DNA of 64,000 nt from an uncultured Chthonomonadaceae bacterium (GTDB taxonomy: Bacteria; Armatimonadota; Chthonomonadetes; Chthonomonadales; CAJBBX01), in the NCBI GenBank assembly GCA_964396385.1, contig CAYNFH010000003.1, positions 12,178 through 76,177 on the forward strand, given 5' to 3'. Under the pieces are notes generated by a model, which was not told the DNA's origin, searched no databases, and saw nothing but the letters and a program-made list of their open reading frames with translations. Shown here piece after piece: positions 6,341 to 52,053 of the stretch (position 1 is its first letter; each line of letters starts with the position of its first letter). Both the position numbers and the translations under genes were made by a program.

Positions 6341-6403
6341 GACGGCGGACGGGAGACGGACGGGTTGTAGCTCCGTCGGTCATCCGTCTTCCGTCCTCCG
6401 TCT
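6341..6403. repeat. Imperfect hairpin whose arms are tandem GACGG-type units, between convergent genes
   Basis: gacggcggacgggagacggacgg...ccgtcggtcatccgtcttccgtcctccgtc. The arms are roughly complementary. Confidence 0.6.
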
Positions 6404-7463: not shown

Positions 7464-7520
7464 GTGTGGGAGTATGGGAGTATGGGCGTATGGGCGTCCC
7501 GAATCCGGCCACTCCCACAC
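7464..7520. repeat. Intercistronic hairpin/tandem-unit element between cydA and cydB (GGGAGTATGG units, loop containing GAATCCGG)
   Basis: gtgtgggagtatgggagtatgggcgtatgggcgt-cccgaatccggcc-actcccacac. It belongs to the same unit family as 23193-23265. Confidence 0.65.
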
Positions 7521-16517: not shown

Positions 16518-16538
16518 TCGCGCCTCTCGCCTCCCTCC

Positions 16539-16573
16539 TACTGACTACTGACTACCGACTACTGACTACTGAG
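16539..16573. repeat. Tandem heptamer block, 5 x TACTGAC (one-armed)
   Basis: tactgac tactgac taccgac tactgac tactgag. Confidence 0.8.
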
Positions 16574-16577
16574 TCAC

Positions 16578-16702
16578 GGGCAGCCCACGTAGTTGCCCCG
16601 CTCCCCTACCAGCCCCCAGAAGCTGAGCCGGCCGTTTAAGGGCGAGCGGATGGTTCCATGGCAGCTAGCCCCTTAAACGGTTAAGATTTCCGTGGGCTGC
16701 TT
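16578..16702. other. Nested long-range inverted repeats upstream of the blaI-like gene (candidate structured RNA or DNA element)
   Basis: Outer pair is GCAGCCCACG (16578-16587) with CGTGGGCTGC (16693-16702). Inner pair is CCGTTTAAGGG...CCCTTAAACGG around 16632-16680. Confidence 0.4.
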
Positions 16703-16768
16703 TGTTGTTCCTCTGGTTTGGGTAAGATGGGAGAGAGTAGGACGTACTATTCCGTATGAGGTGTCGGA

Positions 16769-17152
16769 ATGCCTAGACCCCCCCTAGGAGAGCAGCAGCT
16801 AGACCTGCTCCGCTTCGTCAGCGAGCACTCCCCCATCACCGCCCGCGAAGTGGCGGAACAGTATGGTGAGCCCAACGGGCTCGCCCGCACCACCGTCGTG
16901 ACGGTCCTGGAGAAACTGAGGCAGAAAGGGTATCTCACTCGGGCCCAGGTAGACGGCGTCTACCAGTACTCCCCTGCTTCGGGTCCCGCCATGTGGCAGG
17001 ACGTGATCCACCAGTTCGTGGAGCGCACGCTCGGCGGCCGCCTCGGCCCCTTCGTCGCCTACCTCACCAACCAGAATAACCTCACGCCGGAGGAGATTCA
17101 GGAGCTGGAGGAGCTGGTCAAGAAGGCGAAGCAGCAGAACCAGGACAAATAG
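16769..17152 (+). CDS. BlaI/MecI/CopY-family transcriptional repressor
   Basis: Winged helix LDLLRFVSEHSPITAREVAEQYGEPNGLARTTVVTVLEKLRQKGYLTR, 127 aa. Confidence 0.85.
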   Translation: MPRPPLGEQQLDLLRFVSEHSPITAREVAEQYGEPNGLARTTVVTVLEKLRQKGYLTRAQVDGVYQYSPASGPAMWQDVIHQFVERTLGGRLGPFVAYLTNQNNLTPEEIQELEELVKKAKQQNQDK

Positions 17153-17317
17153 CCCTCCACGCCCCACTCACGGACTTCGGCCTGACACCGTCCCTGCGCG
17201 TCATCCCCAGCTTAGCGATGGATCTCTTCTGAAAATGCCTGACCTCCGGTCACACCGGCGGAGGCGCTGCGGCGGCGGCTAGAGATGGCAGGCGTGCGGG
17301 TACACAGTGGCTGCAGT

Positions 17318-17602
17318 CTATGCCGCGAGCTGGAGACTCACCGTCCTGCCGAGCCGCGTCTCCAGAGTGATGAGCGTCTCTAGGCTGAACTTCTCCCACC
17401 GGCCGTGAACCAAGTCTGAGAAGCGCGAGCGAGTGATGCCGAGTCTGTCGACCGCCTCGGCCGAATTCATACCGGTCGACTGGATGAACTCACGAAGGTC
17501 GCTCAGCAGCATGGCCCTCATCTGAAGGATGGATGCTTCTTCCGGGCCAAACCCGAGGTCCGCAAAGACGTTGCCGCTGCTCTCGTGGATGGGTTCGTCC
17601 AC
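17318..17602 (-). CDS. XRE-family HTH antitoxin-like protein
   Basis: NVFADLGF...MNSAEAVDRLGITRSRFSDLVHGRWEKFSLETLITL. It abuts the stop of the toxin remnant. Confidence 0.75.
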   Translation of the reverse strand: MDEPIHESSGNVFADLGFGPEEASILQMRAMLLSDLREFIQSTGMNSAEAVDRLGITRSRFSDLVHGRWEKFSLETLITLETRLGRTVSLQLAA

Positions 17603-17719
17603 CTATCTTTCCCCTATCTGACGGTACCGTTGCCGCGCCAAATCGATGTCTGATTGCCTGGTCCTGCGGGTCTTCTTCTGGAAAGAGTGCAGAACGTACA
17701 CCGTGATATAATGGCCCAT
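17603..17719 (-). pseudogene. C-terminal remnant of a Gp49/RelE-ParE-superfamily toxin (N-terminal two thirds missing)
   Basis: GHYITVYVLHSFQKKTRRTRQSDIDLARQRYRQI matches the conserved ...VLHxFxKKTxKTPxxEIxxAxxR tail. The upstream part of the ORF is overlapped by the opposite-strand higB. Confidence 0.6.
17707..17712 (+). promoter_or_regulatory. TATAAT box 5 nt upstream of the higB ATG (possible leaderless transcript)
   Basis: gTATAATggcccATG, with no SD. Confidence 0.35.
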
Positions 17720-18011
17720 GCACGTGATCGCCAGGCGGACGCTCCGCGAGTTCTGGGAGCGGCATACGGACGCGGAGGACGCGCTCACTGCCTGGTATCA
17801 GGACGCCTCTAGGGCAACCTGGCGGACGCCTGATGACATCCGCGCCTTATATGCAACGGCCAGTTTCGTGCCTAACAACCGGGTCGTCTTCAACATTCGC
17901 GGGAATTCGTACCGTCTGGTCGTACACGTGGTGTATCGCACGGGACGCGTGTATGTCCGGTTCGTGGGCACGCACGCGGAATACGACCGAATCGACGCCG
18001 AGACCGTTTGA
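17718..18011 (+). CDS. higB: HigB-family mRNA interferase toxin
   Basis: MHVIARRTLREFWERH...FNIRGNSYRLVVHVVYRTGRVYVRFVGTHAEYDRI is typical of the HigB_toxin family. Confidence 0.85.
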   Translation: MHVIARRTLREFWERHTDAEDALTAWYQDASRATWRTPDDIRALYATASFVPNNRVVFNIRGNSYRLVVHVVYRTGRVYVRFVGTHAEYDRIDAETV

Positions 18012-18023
18012 CGGATAGGAACT

Positions 18024-18416
18024 ATGGACATTCGGCCCCTAAGGACAGAGGCAGACTACTCTGCGGCGCTGGAGGAGATCGGACGGTTGCTCAGACATGA
18101 ACCGCAGCCTGGAACGCCTGAAGACGACCGCCTGGAGGTTCTCTCCATTCTGGTGGAAGCCTATGAGAATCGAAGCTGCCCCATGCCTCTGCCCTCACCC
18201 ATCGGCGCTATCGCGTACTACATGGAGAGCCGCGGGCTCACGCGGAAGGACCTGGAGCAGTACATCGGCGGCCGAGGACGAGTAACCGAGGTCCTGAACC
18301 GGAAGCGGCCTCTCACCATGCAGATGGTACGCCGGCTGCACCAGGGACTCGGCATCCCCGCTGATGTTCTCATCCAGCCTTACCCGCTGGATACTGAGCC
18401 GGCAAAGGCCGCCTGA
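18024..18416 (+). CDS. higA: HigA-family HTH antitoxin
   Basis: IRPLRTEADYSAALEEI...PIGAIAYYMESRGLTRKDLEQYIGGRGRVTEVLNRKRPLTMQMVRRL. Confidence 0.85.
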   Translation: MDIRPLRTEADYSAALEEIGRLLRHEPQPGTPEDDRLEVLSILVEAYENRSCPMPLPSPIGAIAYYMESRGLTRKDLEQYIGGRGRVTEVLNRKRPLTMQMVRRLHQGLGIPADVLIQPYPLDTEPAKAA

Positions 18417-18727
18417 ACACTGCTCTCGCTGCCGTCAGAGAACCGGTCGGATGACTGAGCTCCGCCGGCAGGCCCCTATTCCCAGCTATGCCGCGCCGAA
18501 GCCGGCTCTAGCGCACTCATGGATCCAGCCGCCGGTCCGCCCTGGAGACCCTTCGGCGAAATCTGCACCCTTTTTGCGCTTATTGCGCTTTCTGCGCAAG
18601 ACCGGAGTCCTGCCCCTCTTGAGCTTGGGACGGGTGGTGCCCCCTTATAGCGCTTTCCGCGCTTTTCGCGCAATCTCCACCCATTACCCCGCAGACGCCT
18701 GCGCCGTGCTGTTGGAGAGGCAGATCC

Positions 18728-18753
18728 GAATTTGGCGCGGCCGCGCCAAATTC
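18728..18753. repeat. Perfect 26-nt palindrome GAATTTGGCGCGG|CCGCGCCAAATTC, followed by GAGACAaTGTCTC (18754-18766)
   Basis: Read directly from the sequence. Member of the AATTTG...CAAATT palindrome family. Confidence 0.85.
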
Positions 18754-18805
18754 GAGACAATGTCTCACTCTGACCGCCCGCCGCCTCCGCACTCGAACAC
18801 ATGCC

Positions 18806-18833
18806 GTCTGTGGTCTGTGGTCTATGGTCTGTA
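18806..18833. repeat. Tandem heptamer block, 4 x GTCTGTG
   Basis: gtctgtg gtctgtg gtctatg gtctgta. Confidence 0.8.
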
Positions 18834-18916
18834 CCGCCACAAGATCTCGTAGGAATCCCGCCTCGCTCGAACGCTCGCCCTCAAAGAGGCACGGGAGTGA
18901 CTCGGCGCGGACGCGG

Positions 18917-18943
18917 CAATTTGACACGCCGCGTGTCAAATTG
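18917..18943. repeat. 27-nt palindrome CAATTTGACACGC-c-GCGTGTCAAATTG
   Basis: Read directly from the sequence. Same terminal motif as the others, with a different covarying core. Confidence 0.85.
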
Positions 18944-18967
18944 GGGCAGAACCCTCCTCCATAGTCG

Positions 18968-19005
18968 CCACCGCCCCGACTCGGCGCGCCGAGTCGGGGC
19001 GGTGG
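18968..19005 (-). terminator. Perfect 38-nt palindrome just 3' of the 19026..20117 gene
   Basis: CCACCGCCCCGACTCGGCG|CGCCGAGTCGGGGCGGTGG, about 20 nt after the stop codon. Confidence 0.55.
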
Positions 19006-19025
19006 ACCGCGCAAGACCGGACGGC

Positions 19026-20117
19026 TTACTGGATCTCGACCCGCTTGGCCGTGAGGGTCATCGTCGAGAGGTCCAGCGTCCCGACCACCTCCACGGTCTC
19101 GCCGGTGGAGATGTCCGCGAAGCTGGCGCTATGATGATGGCCCCGATGGAACACCGTGTGCGCGTCCGTCACCACCGTAATCGTCCCGGAGTTCGGAGCG
19201 AAGTGGTCCGCATCCTGGAGCGTGAGCTGGAAGCTGGAGTGGGTGGTATCCACCGTTCCAACGGTACCTCTGGCGCCGACGAAGTGCATGCCGTTGTCCG
19301 AGTCGGAGTCGTTGTCCACGATGATCCGGTCGGCGGTTACCACGTGTGAAGTGGTATCCACCGTGCCGCGCACCTCCACCTGCTGGCCGTTAGCGAGGGT
19401 CATGGACTGACCGCCGTGCTCGCCGAAGACCACCGTATCCGGCGTGAGCGCTACGTGCACGATGTGGCCGTTGCGCAGCGTCAGGTCGAAGCCGGAGCTG
19501 GTGAGGTTCGTGACCGTGCCGTGGAGCTCGGCGAACTTCTGCTTGGGCCCGAAGTGCGAGTTATCACCCTGGTGGATGCTCGGCTGGAGCTTGCCGCCCA
19601 CGAGCTGGAACGCCGCCAGGTCGAAGTCCACCACCAGGTTGGAGAGCTGGCCGGACGCGACGGGAGTGGTGGCCACCAGCGTGATCTGCCGCTCGCCGTT
19701 GCCGATGTCCGTCCCGCCGGTTACCTGCACGGTTTGCGGGGGCCCGCCGTTGCTGGGCACCAGCGTCACGTCGTCGCCAAGCGTCACGCGGACCTGGGTG
19801 TAGTTGGCCGCCGGCACGGTGACGGTGGAGAGGAGCTGTGCCGCGCTGGACAGCGAGGCGATGTCGATCGGGGTGCCGTTCGGGTCGTCGGAGGCAAAGA
19901 GCGTTACCCAGTTCATTCCATCGGTGCTGGCCTCTATCTTGAAGAGGTCCACCCAGACCTGGCTGAACTGGTCGTTAAAGCTGTCGGTGACGAATACCCC
20001 CATCTCTCCCGATCCGCTTGTGGACCCGCCGCCTCCGCCTCCGCCGCAGCCGCTCAGCGCGAGAGCCATGGAGAGGACTGTCGTTGCTACCATCAACGGG
20101 CGCCACGTAGTTCGCAT
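19026..20117 (-). CDS. Lipoprotein with a DUF4382-like N-terminal domain and DUF5666-like repeats
   Basis: Lipobox LALSGC followed by a GGGGGGS linker. Also VFVTDSFNDQFSQVWVDLFKIE...NYTQVRVTLG, and repeated GTVTNLTSSGFDLTL / GTVGTVDTTHSSFQLTL segments. Confidence 0.75.
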   Translation of the reverse strand: MRTTWRPLMVATTVLSMALALSGCGGGGGGGSTSGSGEMGVFVTDSFNDQFSQVWVDLFKIEASTDGMNWVTLFASDDPNGTPIDIASLSSAAQLLSTVTVPAANYTQVRVTLGDDVTLVPSNGGPPQTVQVTGGTDIGNGERQITLVATTPVASGQLSNLVVDFDLAAFQLVGGKLQPSIHQGDNSHFGPKQKFAELHGTVTNLTSSGFDLTLRNGHIVHVALTPDTVVFGEHGGQSMTLANGQQVEVRGTVDTTSHVVTADRIIVDNDSDSDNGMHFVGARGTVGTVDTTHSSFQLTLQDADHFAPNSGTITVVTDAHTVFHRGHHHSASFADISTGETVEVVGTLDLSTMTLTAKRVEIQ

Positions 20118-22306: not shown

Positions 22307-23191
22307 CTACGGGTTCCTCAGCCCGTCCTCCCGGTACACGCCCGCGGCGGGCGGCGGCACCTGGGACAGGTCCAAAGCCGGCGTGAAGCTCTCCGCGAGC
22401 CGCACGTTTCGGTCCACCTCCTCCACGGTTCGCATGCCCACCAGGGCCACGTGCACGCGCGGGTCCGAGAGGACGAAGCGGAGGCAGACTTCGTTCGGGT
22501 CGCGCGCGGCGGGCCACTCCGGCGCCAGGTCTCGCAGGATGCGCTGAAGGATGCCGCTGGTGAGCGGCCGCATCACGGCGATGCCCATTCCAGCCTCGCT
22601 CGCCCTGGGCAGCGCGTGCTGAGACGCCTGGTGGTTGAGCAGGTTGTACCGTAACTGCACCACGTCGAAAGCGCCGGAGGTGATGAGCGGGAGCGCGGTG
22701 AAGGGCTCCTCGCAGGTGAAGCCTATGAACCGGACCTTGCCCTGCTTCTTCAGCCGGACCAGCCCCTCGAGCGGAGCGCCCTCCAGGATGTGGCGCACGT
22801 GCGTCTCTGTGAACATGCCGCCGTGGAGCTGCGCCACGTCCACCGTCTCGCGCCGCAGCCGCCGGAGCGACTGCTCCACGCTGGAGACCACCTGCTCGGC
22901 GCCACCGGACCAGCCGCACTTGGTGGCCAGGGTGTACGGCTCGGTCACACCCTGGAGCGCTTCCCCCAGGACTGCCTCCGAGTTGCCGTTGCCGTAACCA
23001 GCCGCCGTATCGAAGTAGGTGATGCCGGCTTCGAGCGCATGCCGGACGATCCGGACGGCGACCCGCCGCCCCTCCGCGCTGAACGGGTTCCATCCGGCGG
23101 CCTCATCCAGCGCGCCTAATGGGTACCCGCCGAAGCCCAGCCGCGTGACCGTCCGTCCCGTACGCCCGAAGGTAGTGAAGGGAAGAGACAT
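22307..23191 (-). CDS. Aldo/keto reductase
   Basis: Start MSLPFTTFGRTGRTVTRLGFGGYPLG at 23191. Also YFDTAAGYGNG and LATKCG. The 13-aa track extension comes from the hairpin element. Confidence 0.88.
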   Translation of the reverse strand: MSLPFTTFGRTGRTVTRLGFGGYPLGALDEAAGWNPFSAEGRRVAVRIVRHALEAGITYFDTAAGYGNGNSEAVLGEALQGVTEPYTLATKCGWSGGAEQVVSSVEQSLRRLRRETVDVAQLHGGMFTETHVRHILEGAPLEGLVRLKKQGKVRFIGFTCEEPFTALPLITSGAFDVVQLRYNLLNHQASQHALPRASEAGMGIAVMRPLTSGILQRILRDLAPEWPAARDPNEVCLRFVLSDPRVHVALVGMRTVEEVDRNVRLAESFTPALDLSQVPPPAAGVYREDGLRNP

Positions 23192-23192
23192 A

Positions 23193-23265
23193 GGGGTATG
23201 GGAGTATAGGAGTGTAGGAGTGTGGGGCAATCACTCCCATACCCCCACACTCCGACGCTCCCACA
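23193..23265. repeat. Intercistronic hairpin built of GGAGT(A/G)T(A/G)G units between the two AKR genes
   Basis: ggggtatgggagtataggagtgtaggagtgtgggg-caatca-ctcccatacccccacactccgacgctcccacac. Confidence 0.7.
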
Positions 23266-30290: not shown

Positions 30291-30313
30291 CGGTACTGCC
30301 CAGCCCCCAATCA

Positions 30314-30378
30314 AAGGATGAAGGATGAGGGATGAGGGATGAATCCGGAATTCATCCTTCATCCTTCATCCCTCATCC
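30314..30378. repeat. Intercistronic hairpin built of GGATGA(A/G)-type units with a GAATCCGGAATTC loop
   Basis: aaggatgaaggatgagggatgagggatgaat-ccgg-attcatccttcatccttcatccctcatcc. Confidence 0.75.
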
Positions 30379-30424
30379 GTTGTCCATGAGTATGGCGTTG
30401 AACGTGGCCTTTCGGTTCCCCGAT

Positions 30425-31516: not shown

Positions 31517-31795
31517 AGCAGTCTCCCTGAAATCGACGAGATAGAACTGTCCGCTCGTCGGGGAGCGCTCTGACCTATTCACCGCGCGAACGGGGACTCC
31601 TCCGCGACTTACCCCACCGCTTGCCCCTTAGAGAGGGCGAGGCAAAGCAGCGGGCATGGTGAGGTGCCTGACTCCGCGAAACTTGGTTCCGGTTTTCCTG
31701 TCTTAGAGAGAGTATCTATTCGTCGGCCGGGCTTTAGCCGTACGCCGCGCTATCCTGTTAGAAGTACCTGTTATCCGCCTTGGAAGGAGAGGGCC

Positions 31796-32101
31796 ATGAG
31801 GACCACGCGACCGAAAGTCCGGCTGATCATCCGTCGTGGACGCGCGTCTAGGCCGACCGCGGCGATAGCTTACGATACTAAGCGAGTGGAAGCCGTCGAG
31901 CGGCTGATCGCCCTCCTCGAGAGGTCGGCGTTTCCCGCTCGGCCGCACCGCATCGGTGTGCGCCCCGGGCGTGTCGATACGCGGTCGCTTCTGGAGCGGC
32001 TGAGAGCGGCCCGCGCCGTGTACGTGCTCTCCTCCGGCGTGGTGGCGCGCACCGGTCCGGGGGCGTATACGCGGGCTTCGTTGCAGGAGCTGGAAGAGTA
32101 G
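31796..32101 (+). CDS. Small hypothetical protein
   Basis: GGAGAG SD before the ATG at 31796; MRTTRPKVRLIIRRGRASRPTAAIAYDTKRVEAVERLIALLERS... Confidence 0.4.
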   Translation: MRTTRPKVRLIIRRGRASRPTAAIAYDTKRVEAVERLIALLERSAFPARPHRIGVRPGRVDTRSLLERLRAARAVYVLSSGVVARTGPGAYTRASLQELEE

Positions 32102-32305
32102 CCGGTCAGCCACGGCAGCCCGCCGGGACCATTCCCGGCAGGCTGCGAGCGTTTACCAGCGGTGACGGTAGAACCGGTGCGCGTAGAAGCCCCGGCCACG
32201 GTAGTAGCGGCCGCCTCCGATGCCGATGGAAAGGCCGAAGCTGGGCCCATAGTAGACCGGACCGTAGCAGGCCACGTAGCCGCGCGGGCGGCAGGGCGGC
32301 CGGAG

Positions 32306-32320
32306 TGAGACATTGTCTCA
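32306..32320. repeat. Palindrome TGAGACAtTGTCTCA (copy 1; same unit at 32719-32733 and, inverted, at 18754-18766)
   Basis: Read directly from the sequence. Confidence 0.85.
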
Positions 32321-32460
32321 AAATGCAAACCGGCTCGGCAGCAGCGGATCACCGCCCTTCCCCTTCGAGGGGCAGCGTTCGAGCGAGGCGGGACTCCCAC
32401 GAGCACATTTGGCTTTGGCAAGTGGTGAGAGATGGAGCTCGTCGGGGCTCGCGTGGTACC

Positions 32461-32488
32461 CCAATTTGAGGGGATCCCCTCAAATTGG
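32461..32488. repeat. Perfect 28-nt palindrome CCAATTTGAGGGGA|TCCCCTCAAATTGG
   Basis: Read directly from the sequence. Confidence 0.85.
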
Positions 32489-32718
32489 CGCGGAGGGACA
32501 TTGTATTGCGATGATGGCGTTCCACTACAATATGGCACCATGGCCTCAAATTGTAGTGATTTGCTCCCATCGCTGGACGCGCATACCTCACCTGCGACTT
32601 CCGCCTGGACGCCCGTTAGCCCGCATGAGGGTGCCGTGCGGGATGCCCCTATGCCGGGCGCGCTAACTTGCCCAGGCAGACATCCAGTGCCTGGCTCAGA
32701 TCGCCGGGTAGGACCATC

Positions 32719-32733
32719 TGAGACATTGTCTCA
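32719..32733. repeat. Palindrome TGAGACAtTGTCTCA (copy 2), followed by AATTG
   Basis: Read directly from the sequence. Confidence 0.85.
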
Positions 32734-32862
32734 AATTGAAAATAGACGGGATGTTCTGACCGGGAGAAGAGGCGGACGGGTACGGCGCTCTAGCTGTTTT
32801 CAGCAATGGTTGGCATGTGTTGGTCGATGGTTGATGGCCGGATAATTAGGACTGATAGTGCA

Positions 32863-32886
32863 AATTTGAGATCGCGATCTCAAATT
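32863..32886. repeat. Perfect 24-nt palindrome AATTTGAGATCG|CGATCTCAAATT
   Basis: Read directly from the sequence. Confidence 0.85.
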
Positions 32887-33011
32887 GTAAACGCGATGAA
32901 CCTGTTAGACGTTTCCCAGCTTCTGGTGTTGTTCCGGCGGAGGGCAAAGGACAGAAGCGCCCGCCCCGTACAGCGTGCTAGAATAGCGTAGCACTCCTAC
33001 CAGGCAACCCT

Positions 33012-33587
33012 ATGTCCAGACCCGGCCGCTGCATACCTCTCCTATTTGCGCTGGTTTGCGCCTGCACGGCGGCTGCCGCACTGCAGAAAGGGCGAAAGCC
33101 CGCTCCGCCGCCGCTGGCGCGACCGTTTGCGCTGGCGGACGTGGAGGGCAAGCGGCACGCGCTGGCGGACTACCGCGGCAAGCCGGTGGCGCTCCAGTTC
33201 TGGTGCGGGTGCCAGTGGTGCCATGACATGGCCAAGCTGTGGGGACAGGCGCAGCGCTCCGGCGCCCTCCAGGTGGGCGGGCAGATTCCCCCTACGCTGG
33301 TGGTCTTCGCGGGCAGCGCAGATGAGCTGAAGGGCTTTGCGACGGAGACGGGGCTCGATCCCGCCACCACGGTGCTGATGCCGGACCCGGACCTGGCGGT
33401 AGCGCAGCCGTACCACGCCGTTCCCTGCCCGCGCGTGTTTGTGCTGGATTCGGGCGGCCGGATCCGGTATACGAACAACCGCGCGGATGACGCCGCGCGC
33501 AAGGGCCCCGCTGCGCTCATCACTGGCCGCGCAGCGGACGCTCTCCAGGGTTTGAAGCCGCTTGCCGCGAAGGGCAAAAAGGGATGA
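33012..33587 (+). CDS. Secreted thioredoxin-fold (TlpA/redoxin-like) protein with an atypical CGCQWC motif
   Basis: Signal peptide, then FALADVEGKRHALADYRGKPVALQFWCGCQWCHD and PRVFVLDSGGRIRY. Confidence 0.7.
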   Translation: MSRPGRCIPLLFALVCACTAAAALQKGRKPAPPPLARPFALADVEGKRHALADYRGKPVALQFWCGCQWCHDMAKLWGQAQRSGALQVGGQIPPTLVVFAGSADELKGFATETGLDPATTVLMPDPDLAVAQPYHAVPCPRVFVLDSGGRIRYTNNRADDAARKGPAALITGRAADALQGLKPLAAKGKKG

Positions 33588-33655
33588 CCAGCAGAGTACA
33601 CCGCCGGTGCCCGGCGACTAATGTCGCGGGCAACAGGAACAGAAAGTCCACCTTC

Positions 33656-34786
33656 ATGGACTCTGGATTCCGATTCCGCGCAGGCGGACTTCGCGTGTTT
33701 GTTGCCGCCATTTCAATCTCCGCCTTGTCCACGAGTGCCGTCGCCCAGACGTCGCCATCGGGGCTGGTAGTGGAGGGGAAGGACGGCGTGATCGTCTACG
33801 GCCCCACACGGGCCCTGTTCGACTTCGGCACGGTGGACCCGCTCACCACGCCCAGGCTGGAGCACCTGTTCACGCTGAAGAACGGCGGAACGGCGACGCT
33901 CACGGTGGGCAACCTGATGCCTTCCTGCGGGTGCACCACGGCTCTGATCGGATCCGGAGACGAGCAGTCCCGCACGCTGGCGCCGGGCGCGGAGGCGAGC
34001 GTGCGCACGGTCTTAGACGTGGCCCACAGCTTCGGAGGAATGCTGGACAAGTACGTGACGGTCTACCTGCAGGGCCAGAGTGTACCGGCCGCCGTCCTGG
34101 AGCTGCGAGTAAACGTGCGGCCGCTAATCAGCTTCTCCAGACCGCTCATCGGGTTCGGGCAGGTGCCGACGGGGGAAACCAGAAGCATTGACCTTACGGC
34201 TACGGTGGATGCCCGGCTGGCGTCTGGCGGCGTGCTGCCGAAGCTGGCATCGAGCGATCCGGACGTTACGGTAGCCCCCTCCGGCGGGCAGACAGAGACC
34301 CTGCGGGACGGTAAGCCGATGCTCGCGCAGTCCTACACGTGCACGGTCTCCCCGCACGCGCACCTGGGAGTGCTGAACGGAACCGTCTACTTTCTCGTCC
34401 GCCCCTCCACGACGCCCCGCCCGGAGGACGCGCTTGCGAGCTTCTCCGTCCCGTTCAGCGGCGAAGTCACGGGGAAGATCTCTGCTGCTCCCGCCACGGT
34501 CATGTTCGGGGCCGCCGCGGTGGGCCGGGAGGTGACGCGAACGGTGACCATCACAGGCGTCAATCCCGAAGCCGTGCGCGGGCTGCACTTAGGTGACCCC
34601 GGCCCATGGCTTACGGCGAAGATGGAGCCGCCCGCAGCCGACCGGCCGAACCAGGCGGCGCTCCAGGTCACGCTCACCAGCCACGCGCCTACCGGAAGCA
34701 TCCAGTCCCACGTCGACATAACGACTACGGACGGGCAGCGGCTCGTAGTGCCGGTTATCGCCTACGTCGTACCCGTCCCGAAGTGA
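33656..34786 (+). CDS. DUF1573-domain secreted protein
   Basis: Start MDSGFRFRAGGLRVFVAAISISALSTSAVAQ. Hallmark FDFGTVDPLTTPRLEHLFTLKNGGTATLTVGNLMPSCGCTTA. Confidence 0.8.
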   Translation: MDSGFRFRAGGLRVFVAAISISALSTSAVAQTSPSGLVVEGKDGVIVYGPTRALFDFGTVDPLTTPRLEHLFTLKNGGTATLTVGNLMPSCGCTTALIGSGDEQSRTLAPGAEASVRTVLDVAHSFGGMLDKYVTVYLQGQSVPAAVLELRVNVRPLISFSRPLIGFGQVPTGETRSIDLTATVDARLASGGVLPKLASSDPDVTVAPSGGQTETLRDGKPMLAQSYTCTVSPHAHLGVLNGTVYFLVRPSTTPRPEDALASFSVPFSGEVTGKISAAPATVMFGAAAVGREVTRTVTITGVNPEAVRGLHLGDPGPWLTAKMEPPAADRPNQAALQVTLTSHAPTGSIQSHVDITTTDGQRLVVPVIAYVVPVPK

Positions 34787-35367
34787 CCGTAGAACCCGTA
34801 ACCCTCGAAGGGCAGCACGTCCGACTGGAGCCCCTGGCAATGCAGCACCTGGAGGGGCTCTGCGCCGTAGGACTCGACCCGAGCATCTGGACGTGGATGC
34901 CCGCCAACCCGCGCACGCCGGATGAGATGCGGGAGGTGGTTGCCGCGGCCCTGCGGGACCAGTCGGCCGGGGTCGCCCTCCCGTTTGCCACCATTGACCG
35001 AGCGACGGACCGGGTGGTCGGAAGCACGCGCTACCTGGCCATCACCCCCGAGCACCGGCGTGTGGAGATCGGTTGGACCTGGATCGCCCCGGCCTGGCAG
35101 CGCACGGCCATCAACACGGAGGCCAAGTACCTGATGCTCCGGCACGCCTTTGAAAAGCTGGAGTGCGTGCGGGTGGAGCTGAAGACGGACCGGCTGAACG
35201 AGCGGTCCCGGGCGGCTATCCAGCGCATCGGCGCACAGGAGGAAGGCACGCTCCGCAGCCACATGCTGATGCCCGGCGGCCGGCTTCGAGATACCGTATA
35301 CTACAGCATCCTGGCGCCGGAATGGCCCGGCGTGAAGGCGGAGCTGGAGAGAAAGCTGAGGATGTAA
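34783..35367 (+). CDS. GNAT-family N-acetyltransferase (RimJ/RimL-like)
   Basis: GTG overlaps the upstream stop (GTGA). Motifs: LEGQHVRLEPL..., VEIGWTWIAPAWQRTAINTEAKYLMLRHAFEKL and NERSRAAIQRIGAQEEGTLR. Confidence 0.85.
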   Translation: MTVEPVTLEGQHVRLEPLAMQHLEGLCAVGLDPSIWTWMPANPRTPDEMREVVAAALRDQSAGVALPFATIDRATDRVVGSTRYLAITPEHRRVEIGWTWIAPAWQRTAINTEAKYLMLRHAFEKLECVRVELKTDRLNERSRAAIQRIGAQEEGTLRSHMLMPGGRLRDTVYYSILAPEWPGVKAELERKLRM

Positions 35368-35377
35368 ATTGATAAAT

Positions 35378-35425
35378 GGGTAAATGAGTGTACCTGGCGA
35401 GATCCCGGCGTACACTCATTTACCC
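35378..35425. repeat. 16-bp-stem hairpin whose left flank is a TAAATNNN x3 tandem, immediately after the GNAT stop
   Basis: GGGTAAATGAGTGTAC-ctggcgagatcccggc-GTACACTCATTTACCC, preceded by gTAAATtgaTAAATgg. Confidence 0.7.
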
Positions 35426-39914: not shown

Positions 39915-41669
39915 CTATTCCGATACTTCGTATGTGAATGTCCGCGCGCTCCACCGCGCGGTCCCGATTCGGATCGCCTTCAGCAGAGCCTGAAGGTGGG
40001 CTAACTCCGTCTTAGAGTAACGCGGGTCCACGGCGCCGGAGCCGCTGACCCAACCTGCCCCCACGGTAGGCTCCAGGGGCGGGAGCTGGTCCACCGACAC
40101 CAGAATGGCGCGAACCAGTGTGTGACCCAGTGGCGTCGCGCCGTTTACCTCAAACTCCTGGCGGGGCAGTCTGCTCTTTCCCGGGGGGAGCACGTTGCGG
40201 GGTTCGGCCGGCGCAGGCCAGACGAGCTGGACCACACCATCAGCGTCGTCCTGATCCAGCAGGTACAGGTAGCCTCCGGTCGGCGTGTCCACCTGCACGT
40301 GGAACAGCTCCCCACGCCGGTATCGGGGCTGTTCCGGGGCGATGCTCCAATCCACCGGCAGCGTACCGCTTCCGCTCGCCGCCATCCGGAACAGTCGGAG
40401 CACATACGCCTGGCGCCGCAAGTAGTCCGCCAATCCCGCGCTCATGAGCGACGGTACATCCGTGCCGGAGTACTCCGCCTTGCGGAACTCATCCACTTCA
40501 TCACCGGCTACCCGCGCATGCCATACGCGGCCGACGCGGCTGAGGGAGATGATGCGGTCGGGCCGGTCCCCGTACTGCGGCACGAGCGCAGCCTCCGGCA
40601 GCCGCTTCGACAAGAATGTCTGCCAGGCGGGGCCGGCCTGCGCCAGGAGCTTTTTGCGCTCGGCGTCCTCCCTTCCGGGAGGGGCATCGAGCCCTACCCG
40701 CAGCGTCTGCTCCTTGCGCCGGAGGGCGTCCACCATGCCGGCCGCTTGTGCCGCGACCGGTGGGGGCGGCGGAGGCGGTGGACCGGAGAGCATCGGGGAT
40801 CCGGAGCTTAGCAATGGCCTATCGAAGAGCTGCGTGAGCCCGGGGCGGTCCGGATAGGGCCGCAGGCCCGGCATGTAGCCCGGCCGGCTCGCGAACCGCT
40901 TCCGGACCTCCTCCAGCAGGGAGCGGTAGGTGGGCGCCTGCTTCTGCACGAGGGCGGTCATAGCGACGTTGCTCAACTCGTCCGAAAATGCGCCGGCCCA
41001 GGTGTTGGAGCTGAAGTCCACGCGCCACTCGTACGCACTGCCTTCGCTTCCGCAGGCGGCGAGCAGAATGCCCGGTCCGCGGTAGAGCTGCTTGCGGGGA
41101 ACACCGGGACGGGAGACGCAGCGGGGAACGTTCTTGTAGTACCGGTCCTCCCCGCGGAGGGGCGGCCGGACGTAGCAGGTGTCCAGGACGATCACCGGTG
41201 TCGCTTTGCTTCGGACGACCTGTTGCGCCCAGACCTCCACGGCCGACATCCGGACGTCTCGCGCGGCGCTCTTGGGCTGGCCGTCATAGGGAACCAGCGT
41301 GGGCTCCATCTCCTTTGTGGCTCGCGGCGCGGAGGCGGGGGGAGCGATGGAGCCCCGGCCGCTGAAATAGAACAGGATCTCATCGCCCTCTCGGGCCGAG
41401 TCCGCCAGCGCCTGGAGGCCCTTCCGGATGGCCGCGCCGGTCGCCGCGGATCCACGCAGCTCCTGGACGGCGCAGTGGCCGTACTCCAGCACGGCTCGCA
41501 TCTGCTTGAGGTCCGTCGCGGCCCCGTGAAGCTGGTCGTAAGAGTCGTGGATGAAGGGATAGGTGTCCAGGCCCACCAGCAGCGCACGGCTCGCGGCGTG
41601 TGTCTGCCGCGCCGCGAGCAGTATCGCCGCGGCCAGAACGGCGCGCCGGACGGCGAGCAGCCGGCTCAT
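39915..41669 (-). CDS. Secreted caspase-fold (peptidase C14-like) protein with catalytic His replaced by Arg (pseudo-caspase), plus a DUF4384-like C-terminal domain
   Basis: ALLVGLDTYPF...ILFYFSGRGS, where active homologs have GHG. VLDTCY retains the Cys. The C-terminal GELFHVQVDTPTGGYLYLLDQDDADGVVQLVWP is like DUF4384. The ATG overlaps the upstream stop. Confidence 0.7.
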   Translation of the reverse strand: MSRLLAVRRAVLAAAILLAARQTHAASRALLVGLDTYPFIHDSYDQLHGAATDLKQMRAVLEYGHCAVQELRGSAATGAAIRKGLQALADSAREGDEILFYFSGRGSIAPPASAPRATKEMEPTLVPYDGQPKSAARDVRMSAVEVWAQQVVRSKATPVIVLDTCYVRPPLRGEDRYYKNVPRCVSRPGVPRKQLYRGPGILLAACGSEGSAYEWRVDFSSNTWAGAFSDELSNVAMTALVQKQAPTYRSLLEEVRKRFASRPGYMPGLRPYPDRPGLTQLFDRPLLSSGSPMLSGPPPPPPPPVAAQAAGMVDALRRKEQTLRVGLDAPPGREDAERKKLLAQAGPAWQTFLSKRLPEAALVPQYGDRPDRIISLSRVGRVWHARVAGDEVDEFRKAEYSGTDVPSLMSAGLADYLRRQAYVLRLFRMAASGSGTLPVDWSIAPEQPRYRRGELFHVQVDTPTGGYLYLLDQDDADGVVQLVWPAPAEPRNVLPPGKSRLPRQEFEVNGATPLGHTLVRAILVSVDQLPPLEPTVGAGWVSGSGAVDPRYSKTELAHLQALLKAIRIGTARWSARTFTYEVSE

Positions 41670-43765
41670 CGAGCGACCCCCCGTCGATCGACTTCAATGT
41701 TCGCCAGCGCTGTATGGCGGAGGTGATCTCCCCGCACCGCGAAGCGGTAGAGCCGCCACAGGCTGCTGTTCACCAGATCGCTGACGGTCACGCCGCGCGT
41801 ACTGCACGCATGGACCACGGCGTGCTCCATGTTGCCGAAGCGGGGGTCCCGCAGCCGCCCCACGTAGATGCCGGTGTGGTGGTTCCCGTCGTACAGCCGG
41901 TAAGGGTTGTTCTGGAAGATGAGCCGGTCTCCCGGCTGGAGCGCGTCCAGGCTGGGGGGCGGTCCCAGGGAGACGGCGCGGCCGAAGATCTCCGCTGGAC
42001 CGCTCTTCCAGTGGACCACCGCACCGTAGTCCTCCATGTTATGGACCGGCGGCGAGGGCACGGGCAGACGTGCGCGCGCATAAACGGCGGCGACGAAGTG
42101 AGAGCAGTCGATGCCGCGGTTGAGGTCCGTGCCGCCCCAGCTATAGGGCGTGCCGATGTACTTCAGGCCCTCACGCGCCGCCATTATGCCTCCCGTCAGC
42201 GGGGGAGCGGAGGAAGGCGCGGTGGGGAACGTCGCCAGGTCCAGGCCCGACGCCCTGACATAACCCGTTATCTCGCCCGCGGTAACGCGGACCAACCCGG
42301 CTCCTGGCACCTTGCCGACCACCAGCACCAGCGAGTTCTTGGGCAGGGTGGTAAGCACCGGCGCACCCCTGCCGGTATGCTGGCGGATCTCCAGGGCAGT
42401 CCGCGCTTTGCCTACGGCCTCCAGCGGCTGCAGACTGTTGGGGCCGAGCGGCGGAGGCGGCGGAAATCGTACGGTGTTGGATGTCGGGAAGGGGCGCAGG
42501 AGGTTCACCACCTCCCCGGGCTCCAGCTCCGTGCCGGGCGGCAGCGCCGTGTTGGCGGCCAGGAACTGGGTAGCGGTGACGCGGCACCGTTTGGAGAGGG
42601 ATGCGACCGTCTCACCCGGCTGGACCGCGTAGAGGCCGGTCACCTGGTAGCCCGCAGACTTGGGACGCGTGCCGTCCTCCTGAAGGCCGGCGATGACTAC
42701 CACCGGAGCGCCGAGCGGCAGGCGGTCGTCCGGGCGGAGACCGTTCAGCGTCCTGAGCAGGCTAACCGGCATCCGCGCCGAGGCCGCGACCTCCTCCAGT
42801 CGCTGGCCCGGTTTCAACGCGATCGTCTCGAAGCGGATGGGCGAGGGGGTCACATGCTGGCGCAGTCCGACCACGTACCAGTCCCCTTCCTTAATCTCGC
42901 CGCGCCGGATGGCCGCGAGGGCGTCTCCGTCGGAAGGCTGAACTCTCGTGACAACCGCCGCATAGGATCCGTATGTATGGCCCAGCGCACCGTAGAAGCT
43001 CGTCTCCGCTCGCACGGGGGACTGCGGACCGCCGGCCCGCGGCGTGGGCTTGTCCGTGGCGCGCGGGTGGGTGACTGGCGCCCCGAATGCGTTGGTCCCG
43101 AGCAGCGGGACCGGGATCCCTTCACTCAGGGTGTATATCTGCACGAAGGCCGGAACGGGGGGACGCACCCAGAGCAGCAGTGTCTTGGCGGGAGGAGAGA
43201 CACCCATCTCCGGGAGGAGCGAGAAGTCCGGGAGCGCGCTAGCCCCGCCGGCCAGACCCAGCTTCTGCCTCCAGTAGGCCGGTGTGAAGAGGGAGATCTG
43301 GGCGCCTCCCACCTCCATGCCGATCCCCAGTAGCCCTGCCAGGCTCTCCAGGCCCACCATCATCGTCTCGCCGTGTCCAGGCAGCGCCATCCTGCGGGGC
43401 GGGGCGGACAGGTACACCCGGCGTGTTGCTTCCCCCTCACGACCTGGACTCACCTCCGCGTAGCTGCCCGATTGGTCCGCCGCCGGAAGCTGGATGACGA
43501 CCTTGCCGCCGACCAGGACTTTACAGAAGGTGGGGTCCGTCGCGTCCAGATTGGCTTGCCCGTGGGTGAGCACGCTCAGCGCGCGCTCCAGGGGCACGCG
43601 ATAGTCGTTCAGCTCGATGGCGACCGGCCCAATGTCTACCGGCTGCTCATCCATCCGCACGACGATATGGGGCAGCAGCCGGAGATCGGCGCGCGCGGAA
43701 CGGAGCAGCGCGCCGGCCAGCGCCATGCTGCCGAGCAGGAGCGCAGCGCGATAGCCCGGTCTCAC
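41666..43765 (-). CDS. Secreted cell-wall hydrolase: LysM repeats, SH3b-like domain and NlpC/P60 cysteine peptidase
   Basis: LysM-like segments are IALKPGQRLEEVAASARMPVSLLRTLNGL and YAVQPGETVASLSKRCRVTATQFLAANTAL. NlpC/P60 region is GTPYSWGGTDLNRGIDCSHFV...HHTGIYVG. The GTG overlaps the upstream stop. Confidence 0.85.
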   Translation of the reverse strand: MRPGYRAALLLGSMALAGALLRSARADLRLLPHIVVRMDEQPVDIGPVAIELNDYRVPLERALSVLTHGQANLDATDPTFCKVLVGGKVVIQLPAADQSGSYAEVSPGREGEATRRVYLSAPPRRMALPGHGETMMVGLESLAGLLGIGMEVGGAQISLFTPAYWRQKLGLAGGASALPDFSLLPEMGVSPPAKTLLLWVRPPVPAFVQIYTLSEGIPVPLLGTNAFGAPVTHPRATDKPTPRAGGPQSPVRAETSFYGALGHTYGSYAAVVTRVQPSDGDALAAIRRGEIKEGDWYVVGLRQHVTPSPIRFETIALKPGQRLEEVAASARMPVSLLRTLNGLRPDDRLPLGAPVVVIAGLQEDGTRPKSAGYQVTGLYAVQPGETVASLSKRCRVTATQFLAANTALPPGTELEPGEVVNLLRPFPTSNTVRFPPPPPLGPNSLQPLEAVGKARTALEIRQHTGRGAPVLTTLPKNSLVLVVGKVPGAGLVRVTAGEITGYVRASGLDLATFPTAPSSAPPLTGGIMAAREGLKYIGTPYSWGGTDLNRGIDCSHFVAAVYARARLPVPSPPVHNMEDYGAVVHWKSGPAEIFGRAVSLGPPPSLDALQPGDRLIFQNNPYRLYDGNHHTGIYVGRLRDPRFGNMEHAVVHACSTRGVTVSDLVNSSLWRLYRFAVRGDHLRHTALANIEVDRRGVAR

Positions 43766-45114
43766 CGGTTCTCTCCCTTGCCGATGACGCTGAAGGTGAC
43801 CTCGGACGTGTAGAACACGCCGGCGGGGGCGCGGGCCTCCCGGAGCCGCTTCATTCCCTGGAAGCGCACTCCTTCGTCACCTACGTTGGCAGCGTCTATG
43901 ACCGCGGCCGCCTTCTCCCTCGTGGTGAAGAGAAGTGCCTTCACGTGCTCCAGCCCTTTCTCATCCGCCGTGTAGTACTCGCTGGGTGGCGGCGGGAGCC
44001 TCTTGACGTCGCCGACCTCTACCTGGGCTGTGCTCACGTCTCCCTTTGGAAACAGGCGATAGACCTTGCCGTCCACGTTGCGGTCCAGCACCACCAGGAA
44101 GCCGGTGACGCCGATTTTCACGTCCAGGCGGATGGGCTCGCCCAGCTCAAAGGCGGTGTGGTCCGGGATCAGGCTGAGGGAGAGCGCCGCGGGATCCACG
44201 TGGTCGCTGTTAAAGTCTTGCCAGAGGGTCGGGGGATCCTGCTCTGTGCTGGAGACCGTCGCGAGACGGTCCTTGGAGTCGAACAGCGACGCCTGCACAT
44301 AGGCCGGGGAGATAGTCGGGTGCTGGTGGAACCGGTCGCCGAGCGTCTCCGCGACTTTCCCCTTCACCTCCGCGTGGAGGGTTCCCCACGGGAGGCTGCT
44401 GTCCTGCTTCAGCTCTTCCACCAGATCACTGGTGAAGACGCCGTGGTACTCGCCCTTGAATCGGCCCTCCAGCGCCTGCTCGTTGCCCTGCGCCGCGGTC
44501 CAGTAGCATACGTTGCTGTCCTTCACCAGGTCGCTCTGAGTGTCCTGATGGCTCGCCGGCCGGGCCGTGATGCTCTTGGAGCCTGCCGGCGCATAGTAGC
44601 GCGGCCGGAAGTCGCGCCGGTCCTCCGTAGAGATGAATTTACGCATGGCGCCGGAGAAGCAGGAGTCCAGAACCACTGTACGGGCGCGGCCGGGGACAGC
44701 GCGCACGGTCTGGTAGAGCTCTTCCGGCGTAATCCCGTTGCCCTGTGCCGTGGAGTCGGTAGGCATCAGCTCCATGCGCGGCTCATCCCGGCCGTGGCCC
44801 GCGAAGTAGAGGAGAAAGCGCTCACTCGGGCCCACGCGCGCGCCAATAGAGGAGATGTTCGCCAGGATGGCCGCGCGCGTCGCCTGCTCGTTGAGCAGCA
44901 GCGTGACCTTGAAGCCGAGGTCCTTCAAGGCTCCGGCCATCAGGCGGGCGTCTCCCTCGCAGCCTCGCAGCGTGTTAGCACGGGCGAGTTGGTACCGCTG
45001 TACCCCGATCACCAGGGCTTGATCCTCGCTTTGCGCAGGCGCCTGCGCGGCAAGCATCGCAAGCAGCAGGAACGCCGTAACAGCGGCGGATCGCATGGAC
45101 GTTAAGCGTTTCAT
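43762..45114 (-). CDS. Secreted caspase-family (peptidase C14) protease with a DUF4384-like C-terminal domain; catalytic dyad intact
   Basis: Start MKRLTSMRSAAVTAFLLLAMLAAQAPAQ at 45114. Motifs: ALVIGVQRY, LLYFAGHGR, VLDSCFSG and GEPIRLDVKIGVTGFLVVLDRNVDGKVYRLFP. The track ORF to 45741 is an extension. Confidence 0.85.
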   Translation of the reverse strand: MKRLTSMRSAAVTAFLLLAMLAAQAPAQSEDQALVIGVQRYQLARANTLRGCEGDARLMAGALKDLGFKVTLLLNEQATRAAILANISSIGARVGPSERFLLYFAGHGRDEPRMELMPTDSTAQGNGITPEELYQTVRAVPGRARTVVLDSCFSGAMRKFISTEDRRDFRPRYYAPAGSKSITARPASHQDTQSDLVKDSNVCYWTAAQGNEQALEGRFKGEYHGVFTSDLVEELKQDSSLPWGTLHAEVKGKVAETLGDRFHQHPTISPAYVQASLFDSKDRLATVSSTEQDPPTLWQDFNSDHVDPAALSLSLIPDHTAFELGEPIRLDVKIGVTGFLVVLDRNVDGKVYRLFPKGDVSTAQVEVGDVKRLPPPPSEYYTADEKGLEHVKALLFTTREKAAAVIDAANVGDEGVRFQGMKRLREARAPAGVFYTSEVTFSVIGKGENR

Positions 45115-45192
45115 GCGCGGCTCTTCGCGTGGCGTTTGGGCTATTCCTCGCCCCTTCCAGCCCTTTCGGAGGGATCTGCGCAAATGGGCCGG

Positions 45193-45216
45193 TTTCGGCA
45201 ACGCTTTCGGCAACGG
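45193..45216. promoter_or_regulatory. Tandem direct repeat TTTCGGCAACG(C/G) x2 in the divergent caspase-operon / CIS promoter region
   Basis: ggTTTCGGCAACGCTTTCGGCAACGGtgg, about 80 nt upstream of the first CIS gene. Confidence 0.4.
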
Positions 45217-45297
45217 TGGGCCTGTAGACTGGCCGTGGTCAGGACGCAAGAGCCCCTGAACGTCCGACAACGCCCTGGAAGGCAAAACGATCCGCCC

Positions 45298-46518: not shown

Positions 46519-46551
46519 CGCGGTTCCCTTTCTCGTTTGCAGGAGGACACG

Positions 46552-48405: not shown

Positions 48406-48430
48406 TCTTCGACGATAGGAGGGATTAGCA

Positions 48431-48865
48431 ATGGCTGAAGTGATTGGGGCATTGAGGTGGTACCTCGAAGTCGACGGCATAACGGAAGGAATCTTTCGGG
48501 AGGTGACGGGGCTCGATTCCGAGACGGAGGTGATCGAGCACCGGGTCACGGGCAAGAACGGCAACCTGATAGTCCACAAGGTGCCGGGTGCGCTCAAGTG
48601 GTCCAACGTCACCCTCCGCCGCGGAATTACGGACGACCGGAAGCTGCACGACTGGCGCAAAAAGATCGAGGACGGGCAGATCGAGGCGAACCGCAAGAAC
48701 GGGACGATCACCTGCTTCGCCCCGAACGGCGATGTAGTCGCAAAGTACTCGTTCAAGAAGGGCTGGCCGTGTAAGTGGCGGGGGCCGGGACTGGACGCCA
48801 CCAAGAACGAGTTGGCCATTGAAGAGCTGGAGCTGGCCCACGAGGGGCTGGAGCGCCAGCAGTAA
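48431..48865 (+). CDS. Tail tube protein (gp19/Afp1-like)
   Basis: FREVTGLDSETEVIEHR...KVPGALKWSNVTLRRGI...WPCKWRGPGLDA...IEELELAHEGL. Confidence 0.88.
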   Translation: MAEVIGALRWYLEVDGITEGIFREVTGLDSETEVIEHRVTGKNGNLIVHKVPGALKWSNVTLRRGITDDRKLHDWRKKIEDGQIEANRKNGTITCFAPNGDVVAKYSFKKGWPCKWRGPGLDATKNELAIEELELAHEGLERQQ

Positions 48866-48876
48866 TGAGGCCCTAG

Positions 48877-49379: not shown

Positions 49380-49386
49380 GGCGGAA

Positions 49387-50012: not shown

Positions 50013-50016
<4 letters not shown>
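49387..50016 (+). CDS. DUF4255 (Pvc16_N) domain protein
   Basis: LNLFLYQVKP... and FELNYLITAYGGEDL are DUF4255 hallmarks. Confidence 0.8.
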
Positions 50017-52031
<2,015 letters not shown>

Positions 52032-52053
52032 GCCCGGGTTGGGAGGTGGGCGG

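Follow-up and report, generated by a model that had tools for sequence, protein, structure and literature searches.

Two non-coding islands with short palindromes

The stretch analysed here (the window) comprises 64,000 nucleotides (nt) of contig CAYNFH010000003.1 from an uncultured Chthonomonadaceae bacterium and contains a family of short, perfectly self-complementary DNA palindromes with the ends AATTTG and CAAATT. Only these 64 kb of the genome were examined, and all window counts refer to them. The palindromes are found in two non-coding islands, island 1 at 18.4-19.0 kb and island 2 at 32.1-33.0 kb. Island 1 is a gap of 609 nt (18417-19025) between two convergent gene ends. To its left lies a higB/higA pair on the plus strand (17718-18011 and 18024-18416, Pfam HigB_toxin and HTH_3) and on the right the gap ends at the stop codon of a DUF4382/DUF5666 gene, which is encoded on the minus strand (19026-20117). 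The GC content by codon position of this gap is without clear codon periodicity, by which it was ruled out as coding sequence, in agreement with the initial annotation, which had called it non-coding. Island 2 is a divergent promoter region of 0.7 kb between a small minus-strand open reading frame (ORF) and an AhpC/TSA-like gene starting at 33012, the latter belonging to an AhpC/TSA-DUF1573 operon.

A total of eight members of the family were located within about 1.5 kb of non-coding DNA, and none elsewhere in the window (Table 1). The four palindromes that the initial annotation had quoted for island 1 (18727-18754, 18754-18766, 18917-18943 and 18968-19005) were all recovered. One of them, the hairpin GAGACAaTGTCTC at 18754-18766, is present in three copies in the window and is a member of the family whose ends have eroded.

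Table 1. Positions of the palindromes, homology blocks and repeats in the window.
Feature	Position	Strand	Description
pal1	18727-18754		CGAATTTGGCGCGG-CCGCGCCAAATTCG (halves meeting at the centre); 28-nt perfect palindrome, no centre base
c1	18754-18767		GAGACAaTGTCTCA, GAGACA type; adjoins the right end of pal1 and opens homology block A
pal2	18917-18943		CAATTTGACACGC-c-GCGTGTCAAATTG; 27-nt perfect palindrome, 1-nt centre
c2a	32306-32320		TGAGACAtTGTCTCA then AAATG (eroded end); lies between blocks B and A in island 2
pal3	32461-32488		CCAATTTGAGGGGA-TCCCCTCAAATTGG (halves meeting at the centre); 28-nt perfect palindrome
Decayed member	32523-32558		CACTACAATaTGgcaCCATGGCCTCAAATTGTAGTG; found in addition to the four AATTTG/CAAATT sites
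c2b	32714-32738		ccatcTGAGACAtTGTCTCAAATTG, GAGACA type; right end intact, left end two substitutions from CAATTTG
pal4	32863-32886		AATTTGAGATCG-CGATCTCAAATT (halves meeting at the centre); 24-nt perfect palindrome
GC-rich palindrome	18968-19005		38-nt perfect palindrome, no centre base, without AATTTG ends
Block A	18751-18790	+	hairpin plus ACTCTGACCGCCCGCCGCC; 85% identity to the other strand at 32322-32282
Block B	18836-18923	+	73% identity to the other strand at 32413-32326; extends to the left end of pal2
Island 2 counterpart of these blocks (B, hairpin, A)	32282-32413	-	contiguous
Direct repeat, left copy	18594-18606	+	13-nt exact, GCGCAAGACCGGA
Direct repeat, right copy	19009-19021	+	13-nt exact, GCGCAAGACCGGA
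Tandem arrays	6379-6403, 7467-7494, 16538-16572, 18806-18832, 23190-23221, 35364-35386, 58281-58314		units GTCTTCC, TGGGAGTA, CTACTGA, GTCTGTG, ATAGGAGT, GTAAATGG, GGTGTTCA

The family unit measures 23-25 bp, with AT-rich (C)AATTTG/CAAATT(G) ends of 6-7 bp and a GC-rich inner arm of 5-6 bp that is specific for the subtype. In the full members the arms are 12 nt long, six positions being conserved (AATTTG) and six variable. The variable inner arms read GCGCGG, ACACGC, AGGGGA and AGATCG, with AGACA in the 11-nt GAGACA type, and conservation falls off toward the centre of the palindrome. The 17-mer TGAGACATTGTCTCAAA is identical at 32306 (c2a) and 32719 (c2b) in unrelated flanks, indicating that the repeat unit is the palindrome of about 23 nt itself; within 32306-32325 the right end of c2a reads CAAAATG. 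In the decayed member the outer 9 bp still pair and the right arm is canonical (CCTCAAATTG), with four mismatches in the left inner arm.

As single-stranded DNA the palindromes form stable hairpins with z-scores of -3.7 to -5.5 (pal1: -14.6 kcal/mol, z-score -4.7). The four perfect copies have neither G·T pairs nor unpaired loops, and the 38-nt palindrome has none either; the other hairpins of the window (at 10727, 13477, 16039, 16491, 20271, 23443 and 32122) have ordinary unpaired loops of 2-6 nt. Selection on a hairpin or cruciform, as put forward in the initial annotation, is consistent with the constraint on self-complementarity, but would not by itself account for centres that are paired throughout and for the lack of G·T pairs. 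The 38-nt palindrome lies 20 nt beyond the stop of the DUF4382/DUF5666 gene with no T-run after it, and is probably the 3' hairpin of that gene. As loop-free perfection is common to this palindrome and the family members, it may be owed to the same process.

Statistical support and covariation

The initial annotation had described conserved AATTTG/CAAATT ends around covarying cores and had proposed a pattern search. Run within the window, the pattern AATTTG-N6..24-CAAATT gave four sites, all palindromic and confined to the two islands, against 0.00 in 100 dinucleotide-preserving shuffles. The spacers of these sites are N12 or N13 and all four are perfect, with 12-nt arms around a centre of 0 or 1 nt. 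Every stretch of 24-25 nt was also scanned for 12-nt arms around such a centre. Stretches paired at 12 of 12 positions occurred five times in 64 kb, where about 0.008 were expected by our own random-sequence estimate; all five are inside the two islands and four of them have perfect AATTTG/CAAATT ends.

Covariation was scored on an alignment of the eight members, in which the centre base of odd-length copies was removed and the GAGACA type was padded with N at the two innermost positions. The score was 0.408 versus 0.172 +/- 0.035 in shuffles, none of 500 reaching the observed value, and slid partners scored at most 0.131. Paired cells amounted to 77.6% versus 65.0% in the shuffles. Each of the six inner pairs has changed in both arms, and the two unpaired cells among them both belong to the decayed copy. 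The palindromes are a real, statistically robust and unclassified family of small repeats, and the description of their ends and cores in the initial annotation was borne out.

As a control, public genomes were scanned with the outer 8+8 bases, CAATTTGA-N8..13-TCAAATTG. Among the 119 matches listed, mostly AT-rich chance occurrences, three had perfectly self-complementary spacers, compared with four out of four here. This contradicts a dimeric-protein site with a free spacer, the other possibility raised in the initial annotation, and bears on a role of the palindromes as operators for one or more dimeric helix-turn-helix regulators. Such regulators would recognize the half-site AATTTGAG, which is common to pal3, pal4 and the GAGACA type, and their targets in island 2 would be the divergent small ORF and the AhpC/TSA-DUF1573 operon. 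The position of the copies in this divergent promoter region would suit such a role, c2a being directly upstream of the small ORF and c2b and pal4 preceding the AhpC-like gene by 280 and 126 nt, and identical 17-mers in differing flanks are typical of strong operators as well. A protein reading only the ends, however, needs no self-complementary spacer, island 1 lies between convergent gene ends and holds no promoter to regulate, and the half-sites are spaced variably (7-8 nt) around wholly different cores. Operators are therefore considered quite unlikely.

An assembly or adapter artefact was ruled out by an identical independent unitig, by unique flanks on both sides and by the varying cores. 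In this second assembly, Logan unitig L252 (run SRR12266072) is 100% identical to window positions 32551-34694, and c2b and pal4 are reproduced in it exactly. A second Logan unitig, L001 (run SRR12266071), matches 16568-18499. The unitigs end inside the CTACTGA array (16568), 83 nt into island 1 (18499) and inside the decayed palindrome (32551), and these ends at repeats suggest graph branching, coverage loss or strain variation.

Relationship between the two islands

The inverted homology between the islands, noted in the initial annotation, is real. It consists of two blocks in permuted order and not of one colinear block. On its minus strand island 2 has the order block B, hairpin, block A, while island 1 reads hairpin, block A, 45 nt, block B, hairpin. 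Block B includes a 20-nt identical core, TCCCGCCTCGCTCGAACGCT, at 18856-18875. After block B, pal2 is the positional homologue of the GAGACA hairpin of island 2: the stem is GACACGC-c-GCGTGTC in island 1 versus GAGACA-a-TGTCTC in island 2, and the two differ at two positions, each of them compensated in the other arm.

Upstream of block A, island 1 reads cgAATTTG[GCGCGGCCGCGCCAAATTCG]AGACAATGTCTCA and island 2 reads gcATTTTGAGACAATGTCTCA, without pal1. When the 20 nt at 18735-18754 are taken out of island 1, the sequence becomes cgAATTTGAGACAATGTCTCA, a canonical end followed by the core as in c2b. Since a canonical end and a GAGACA core are restored in this way, pal1 looks like an insertion of 20 nt bounded by AATT(T/C)G repeats, or island 2 like the product of a precise deletion.

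The relationship of the palindromes to RNA structures was also assessed. As RNA hairpins they would act as transcription terminators, 3'-end stabilisers or parts of small RNAs, for which their intergenic location, their stable stems and the terminator-like position of the neighbouring 38-nt palindrome, 20 nt past a stop codon, can be cited. An intrinsic terminator consists of a GC-rich hairpin with a loop of 3-8 nt, followed by a T-run. A terminator scan returned no such site in 18300-19100 and one unrelated site in 31580-33050, so that membership in this class was rejected, and a promoter scan gave no site at the palindromes. The whole window gave no Rfam match at gathering thresholds, and when the scans were relaxed the two islands yielded only weak, chance-level hairpins far below the cut-offs. 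RNA folding of the flanking blocks A and B showed nothing beyond the palindromes, with z-scores of -1.7 to +0.4 that are no better than those of shuffles. The stems moreover lack G·U pairs and free loops and the copies do not directly follow genes, which makes an RNA function very improbable.

Several further features adjoin the palindromes. The exact 13-nt direct repeats GCGCAAGACCGGA enclose a block of 402 nt that contains every palindrome of island 1, and may be a scar left by an insertion or a local duplication. At 18564-18599 and 18638-18673 lie two repeats of 36 nt in which TTGCGCTTT is frequent. The segment 15000-18416 has a lower GC content (0.60-0.61 versus about 0.65), encodes higBA together with an HTH_37 protein and a repressor of the BlaI type, and resembles accessory DNA that was acquired and ends at island 1. 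The small ORF of island 2 (32144-32310, minus strand) has an ambiguous start and a very high third-position GC content and encodes a Gly/Tyr/Arg-rich peptide ending in GYVACYGPVYYGPSFGLSIGIGGGRYYRGRGFYAHRFYRHRW, for which no Pfam match was found. The GAGACA hairpin and block B are directly upstream of this ORF and a shared hairpin (32115-32146) is downstream.

A second parse around AATT

Every full member can also be written as N-AATT-[TG-N11..13-CA]-AATT-N, that is, as a TG...CA palindrome of 15-17 bp with AATT duplicated around it; pal1 then becomes G-AATT-[TGGCGCGGCCGCGCCA]-AATT-C. Judged on the sequences, this parse is as valid as that of a plain palindrome. AATT flanks the TG...CA core in four of the four perfect copies and is imperfect in the decayed one (AATa...AATT). 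After removal of the insert, the residual site is CGAATTCG, GAATTC, CAATTG, CCAATTGG or CACTACAATTGTAGTG. As the 7-nt end CAAWTTG is palindromic in its own right, two copies can have an end in common. The right end of pal1 adjoins a GAGACA core, and the tail of block B, GGCGCGGaCGCGG, is identical to the right half of pal1 at 16 of 19 positions and runs into the left end of pal2.

CAATTG, which would be the residual site of three palindromes, does not occur in the whole window, whereas GAATTC, with the same composition, occurs seven times. From sub-word counts we estimated an expected number of about 1.7-2.8 for CAATTG; the deficit is not significant, and avoidance of this site by a restriction system was set aside.

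The AATT-flanked arrangement of all copies and their residual sites, together with perfect centres lacking G·T pairs and the count of zero for CAATTG, could also be explained by break repair. The palindromes would then be immobile local by-products, formed when staggered AATT breaks, for example at CAATTG-type sites, were filled in and sealed with short snap-back or hairpin-derived filler. This leaves the constant TG...CA termini, the insert size of 15-17 bp and the three identical GAGACA cores unexplained, and it gains little from a deficit that is not significant. We also know of no such palindrome-forming process documented in bacteria, which counts against this explanation as well, and it is held to be quite improbable.

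Comparison with known repeat systems

Repetitive extragenic palindromes (REPs) are defined by a conserved GTAG (or GTGG) that directly precedes the palindrome on its 5' side and is absent from the other, and group 3 REPs are perfect palindromes concentrated in few loci (PMC8266576). Like REPs and the systems of REP-associated tyrosine transposases (RAYTs), the present palindromes are short (20-40 nt), extragenic and multi-copy, often clustered, with families that differ in the stem and a short conserved motif at the foot of the hairpin. They differ in that the GTAG motif of REPs is one-sided, while AATTTG/CAAATT is found on both sides and inside the stem; that REPs have a loop of 3-4 nt (in group 2 a conserved bulge), while the arms are perfect here around a centre of 0 or 1 nt; and that a Y1 transposase gene (tnpA-REP) often accompanies REP clusters, with none nearby here. 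GTAG was not found 5' of pal1 to pal4, the flanks being gatc, gcgg, tacc and gtgc. The motif was seen solely on the 3' side of the decayed copy, which has CTAC on its 5' side, and this orientation is wrong for a REP. Membership in REP/RAYT was ruled out by the absent 5' GTAG and the absent loop.

Miniature inverted-repeat transposable elements (MITEs) resemble the family in their TG...CA-tipped terminal inverted repeats, a possible short AATT duplication, an intergenic location and the decay of some copies, and one copy resembles an insertion relative to its paralogue. Bacterial MITEs, however, measure about 50-400 bp and have an internal region and a recognizable parent insertion sequence (IS), whereas the unit consists here of two 8-bp arms, the cores differ between copies with only the GAGACA type repeated (three times), and no parent IS is present in the window.

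Integron attC sites share with the family conserved outer boxes around variable, self-complementary inner arms; they are recognized as folded single strands and lie at module junctions, which is counted here among the likenesses. An attC site is 57-141 nt long and imperfect, with extrahelical bases, R''/R' boxes of the form RYYYAAC...GTTRRRY and an adjacent intI. The palindromes show none of these: their ends are CAATTTG/CAAATTG, pairing is perfect, they are 24-28 nt long and no integrase is encoded in the window, by which attC membership was ruled out.

More broadly, the palindromes could be structure-specific recombination or nicking sites in the manner of integron attC or of IS200/IS605 and REP hairpins, which we consider unlikely. 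A recombinase or HUH enzyme would read the conserved end on the folded strand, the stem would be free to vary as long as it pairs, and the sites would mark module junctions. Conserved ends with covarying cores follow the logic of attC and REP recognition (for REP, PMC8266576). Blocks A and B are permuted between the islands and each is bounded by a hairpin, the single-stranded DNA hairpins have the stability given above, and island 1 adjoins the higBA module. Modules of the higBA type are common in cassette arrays. Against such sites stand the missing attC boxes and extrahelical bases, the short length, the lack of GTAG on the 5' side and the absence of an encoded integrase or Y1 transposase from the window. 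Recognition of a fold, moreover, needs no complementary positions in the loop, and the shuffling involves two modules only.

The highly iterated palindrome HIP1 of cyanobacteria and inverted pairs of DNA uptake sequences (DUS) or uptake signal sequences (USS) are likewise very short, lineage-specific, over-represented motifs, some of which form hairpins. They have one fixed sequence, whereas in the present family constancy is limited to the ends, and the centre changes yet stays complementary. A CRISPR array was rejected in view of the differing cores and irregular spacings (163, 37, 155 and 124 nt), and a tRNA-derived attachment site was rejected too.

Proposed origin of the family

Our preferred reading, to which we tentatively assign a probability of roughly 0.4, is that the palindromes form a family of miniature DNA repeats specific to the lineage, REP-like or similar to minimal foldback MITEs. 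Units would be duplicated as wholes and accumulate in dispensable intergenic islands. New copies would land at AATT within a short palindromic site, for instance CAATTG, GAATTC or one end of a copy already present, and AATT would be regenerated on both sides to give N-AATT-[TG...CA]-AATT-N. Insertion at AATT would account for the abutting copies and for the clustering in two islands. One arm would be copied from the other by way of a single-strand hairpin intermediate, through snap-back synthesis or hairpin-templated correction. The absence of both loops and G·T pairs implies that one arm was made from the other, or else a strict double-stranded symmetry. An RNA or single-strand fold under selection leaves the central 3-4 nt free, and in RNA tolerates G·U, so that a process at the DNA level is favoured; independent compensatory mutation is an unlikely source of the arm symmetry. 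The sequences with their statistics, covariation and repetition, and their recovery in a second assembly, are observed, whereas we infer mobility, the AATT target, the copying mechanism and an enzyme, for which the window holds no gene. A repeat of this kind is also favoured by the GAGACA subtype, which is present three times and twice in unrelated flanks, while a decayed copy and eroded ends are expected of elements free of host selection.

A number of observations weigh against this reading. AATT is itself palindromic, so that a target duplication is inseparable from the outer stem. Four of the five core types are single-copy within the 64 kb. Complementarity in some cases reaches past the conserved end (in the decayed copy up to 5 bp farther), which is unlike the prediction for an element with fixed boundaries. 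A Pfam scan of 48 ORFs of the window revealed no transposase, Y1 HUH enzyme (Y1_Tnp), RAYT or integrase, and we know of no precedent for a transposable unit of 16 bp. With blastn, neither island had a match among plasmids, nor island 1 among phages. A viral scan with AATTTGAG-N6..9-CTCAAATT returned 120 matches, consisting of redundant phage and AT-rich chance matches with no GC-rich perfect palindrome among them, and a metagenome scan with TGAGACAWTGTCTCAAAWTG returned seven, on contigs of 26-58% GC compared with about 65% here and with unrelated flanks throughout. Four loci of distant relatives (L121, L122, L250 and L251) contained no family member.

These relatives are indeed distant: the best DUF4382 homologues share 45-49% identity and NadE at most 81%. 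Named homologues, from Chthonomonadales, Armatimonas and Abditibacteriaceae, suggest an affiliation with Armatimonadota or Abditibacteriota, although the named DUF4382 proteins share only 37-40%. The 20-mer of block B was absent from viral contigs, and nothing relevant was found in the literature on the motif or on repeats of Armatimonadetes. The family may be lineage-specific, or simply unsampled.

In a bolder version, to which we give little credence, the palindromes would be the smallest self-propagating DNA elements described so far: TG...CA palindromes of 15-17 bp that insert at AATT and are mobilised by an enzyme of this lineage, of the HUH or recombinase type, forming a new class beside REP/RAYT and attC/IntI. 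Insertion would prefer the centres of short palindromes already present, among them the ends of previous copies, and one arm would be regenerated from the other via a hairpin.

REPs, attC sites and MITEs are small palindromic repeats that repeatedly led to enzymes acting on folded single-stranded DNA. The combination of two-sided conserved ends, perfectly pairing variable cores and no loop falls outside every described class. If it held genome-wide, it would point to a new mechanism of copying or insertion at the DNA level in a poorly studied uncultured lineage, and would provide a sequence signature that can be searched for. Consisting of eight copies in one 64-kb window, the evidence is a solid lead and not yet a result.

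Other features of the window

Tandem arrays with units of 7-8 nt in three to five copies each are located in intergenic spacers of the window, several of them between genes of one operon (Table 1). They recall the heptamer short tandemly repeated repetitive (STRR) sequences of cyanobacteria. At 30313-30379, between a PAS histidine-kinase gene and a 2-hydroxyacid dehydrogenase gene, two arrays of heptamers in opposite orientation, (AAGGATG)x4 and (TTCATCC)x4, join at CCGGAATTC and form a near-palindrome of about 65 nt.

An operon on the minus strand (39915-45741) encodes two caspase-like (Peptidase_C14) proteins with DUF4384, which flank a LysM-NlpC/P60 protein. The region 46537-62688 is an extracellular contractile injection system locus with sheath, gp19-like tube, Pvc16_N, AAA ATPase, eCIS_core and CIS_tube proteins. 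A tRNA-Ser (anticodon ACT) was called by ARAGORN on the minus strand at 56445-56529, inside an eCIS_core ORF of 980 amino acids and in a region of 21-nt tandem repeats, and is probably a false positive. The injection system locus also includes a protein of 753 amino acids (52651-54912) that has an SsdA-like toxin domain, a single-strand DNA deaminase, at its C terminus.

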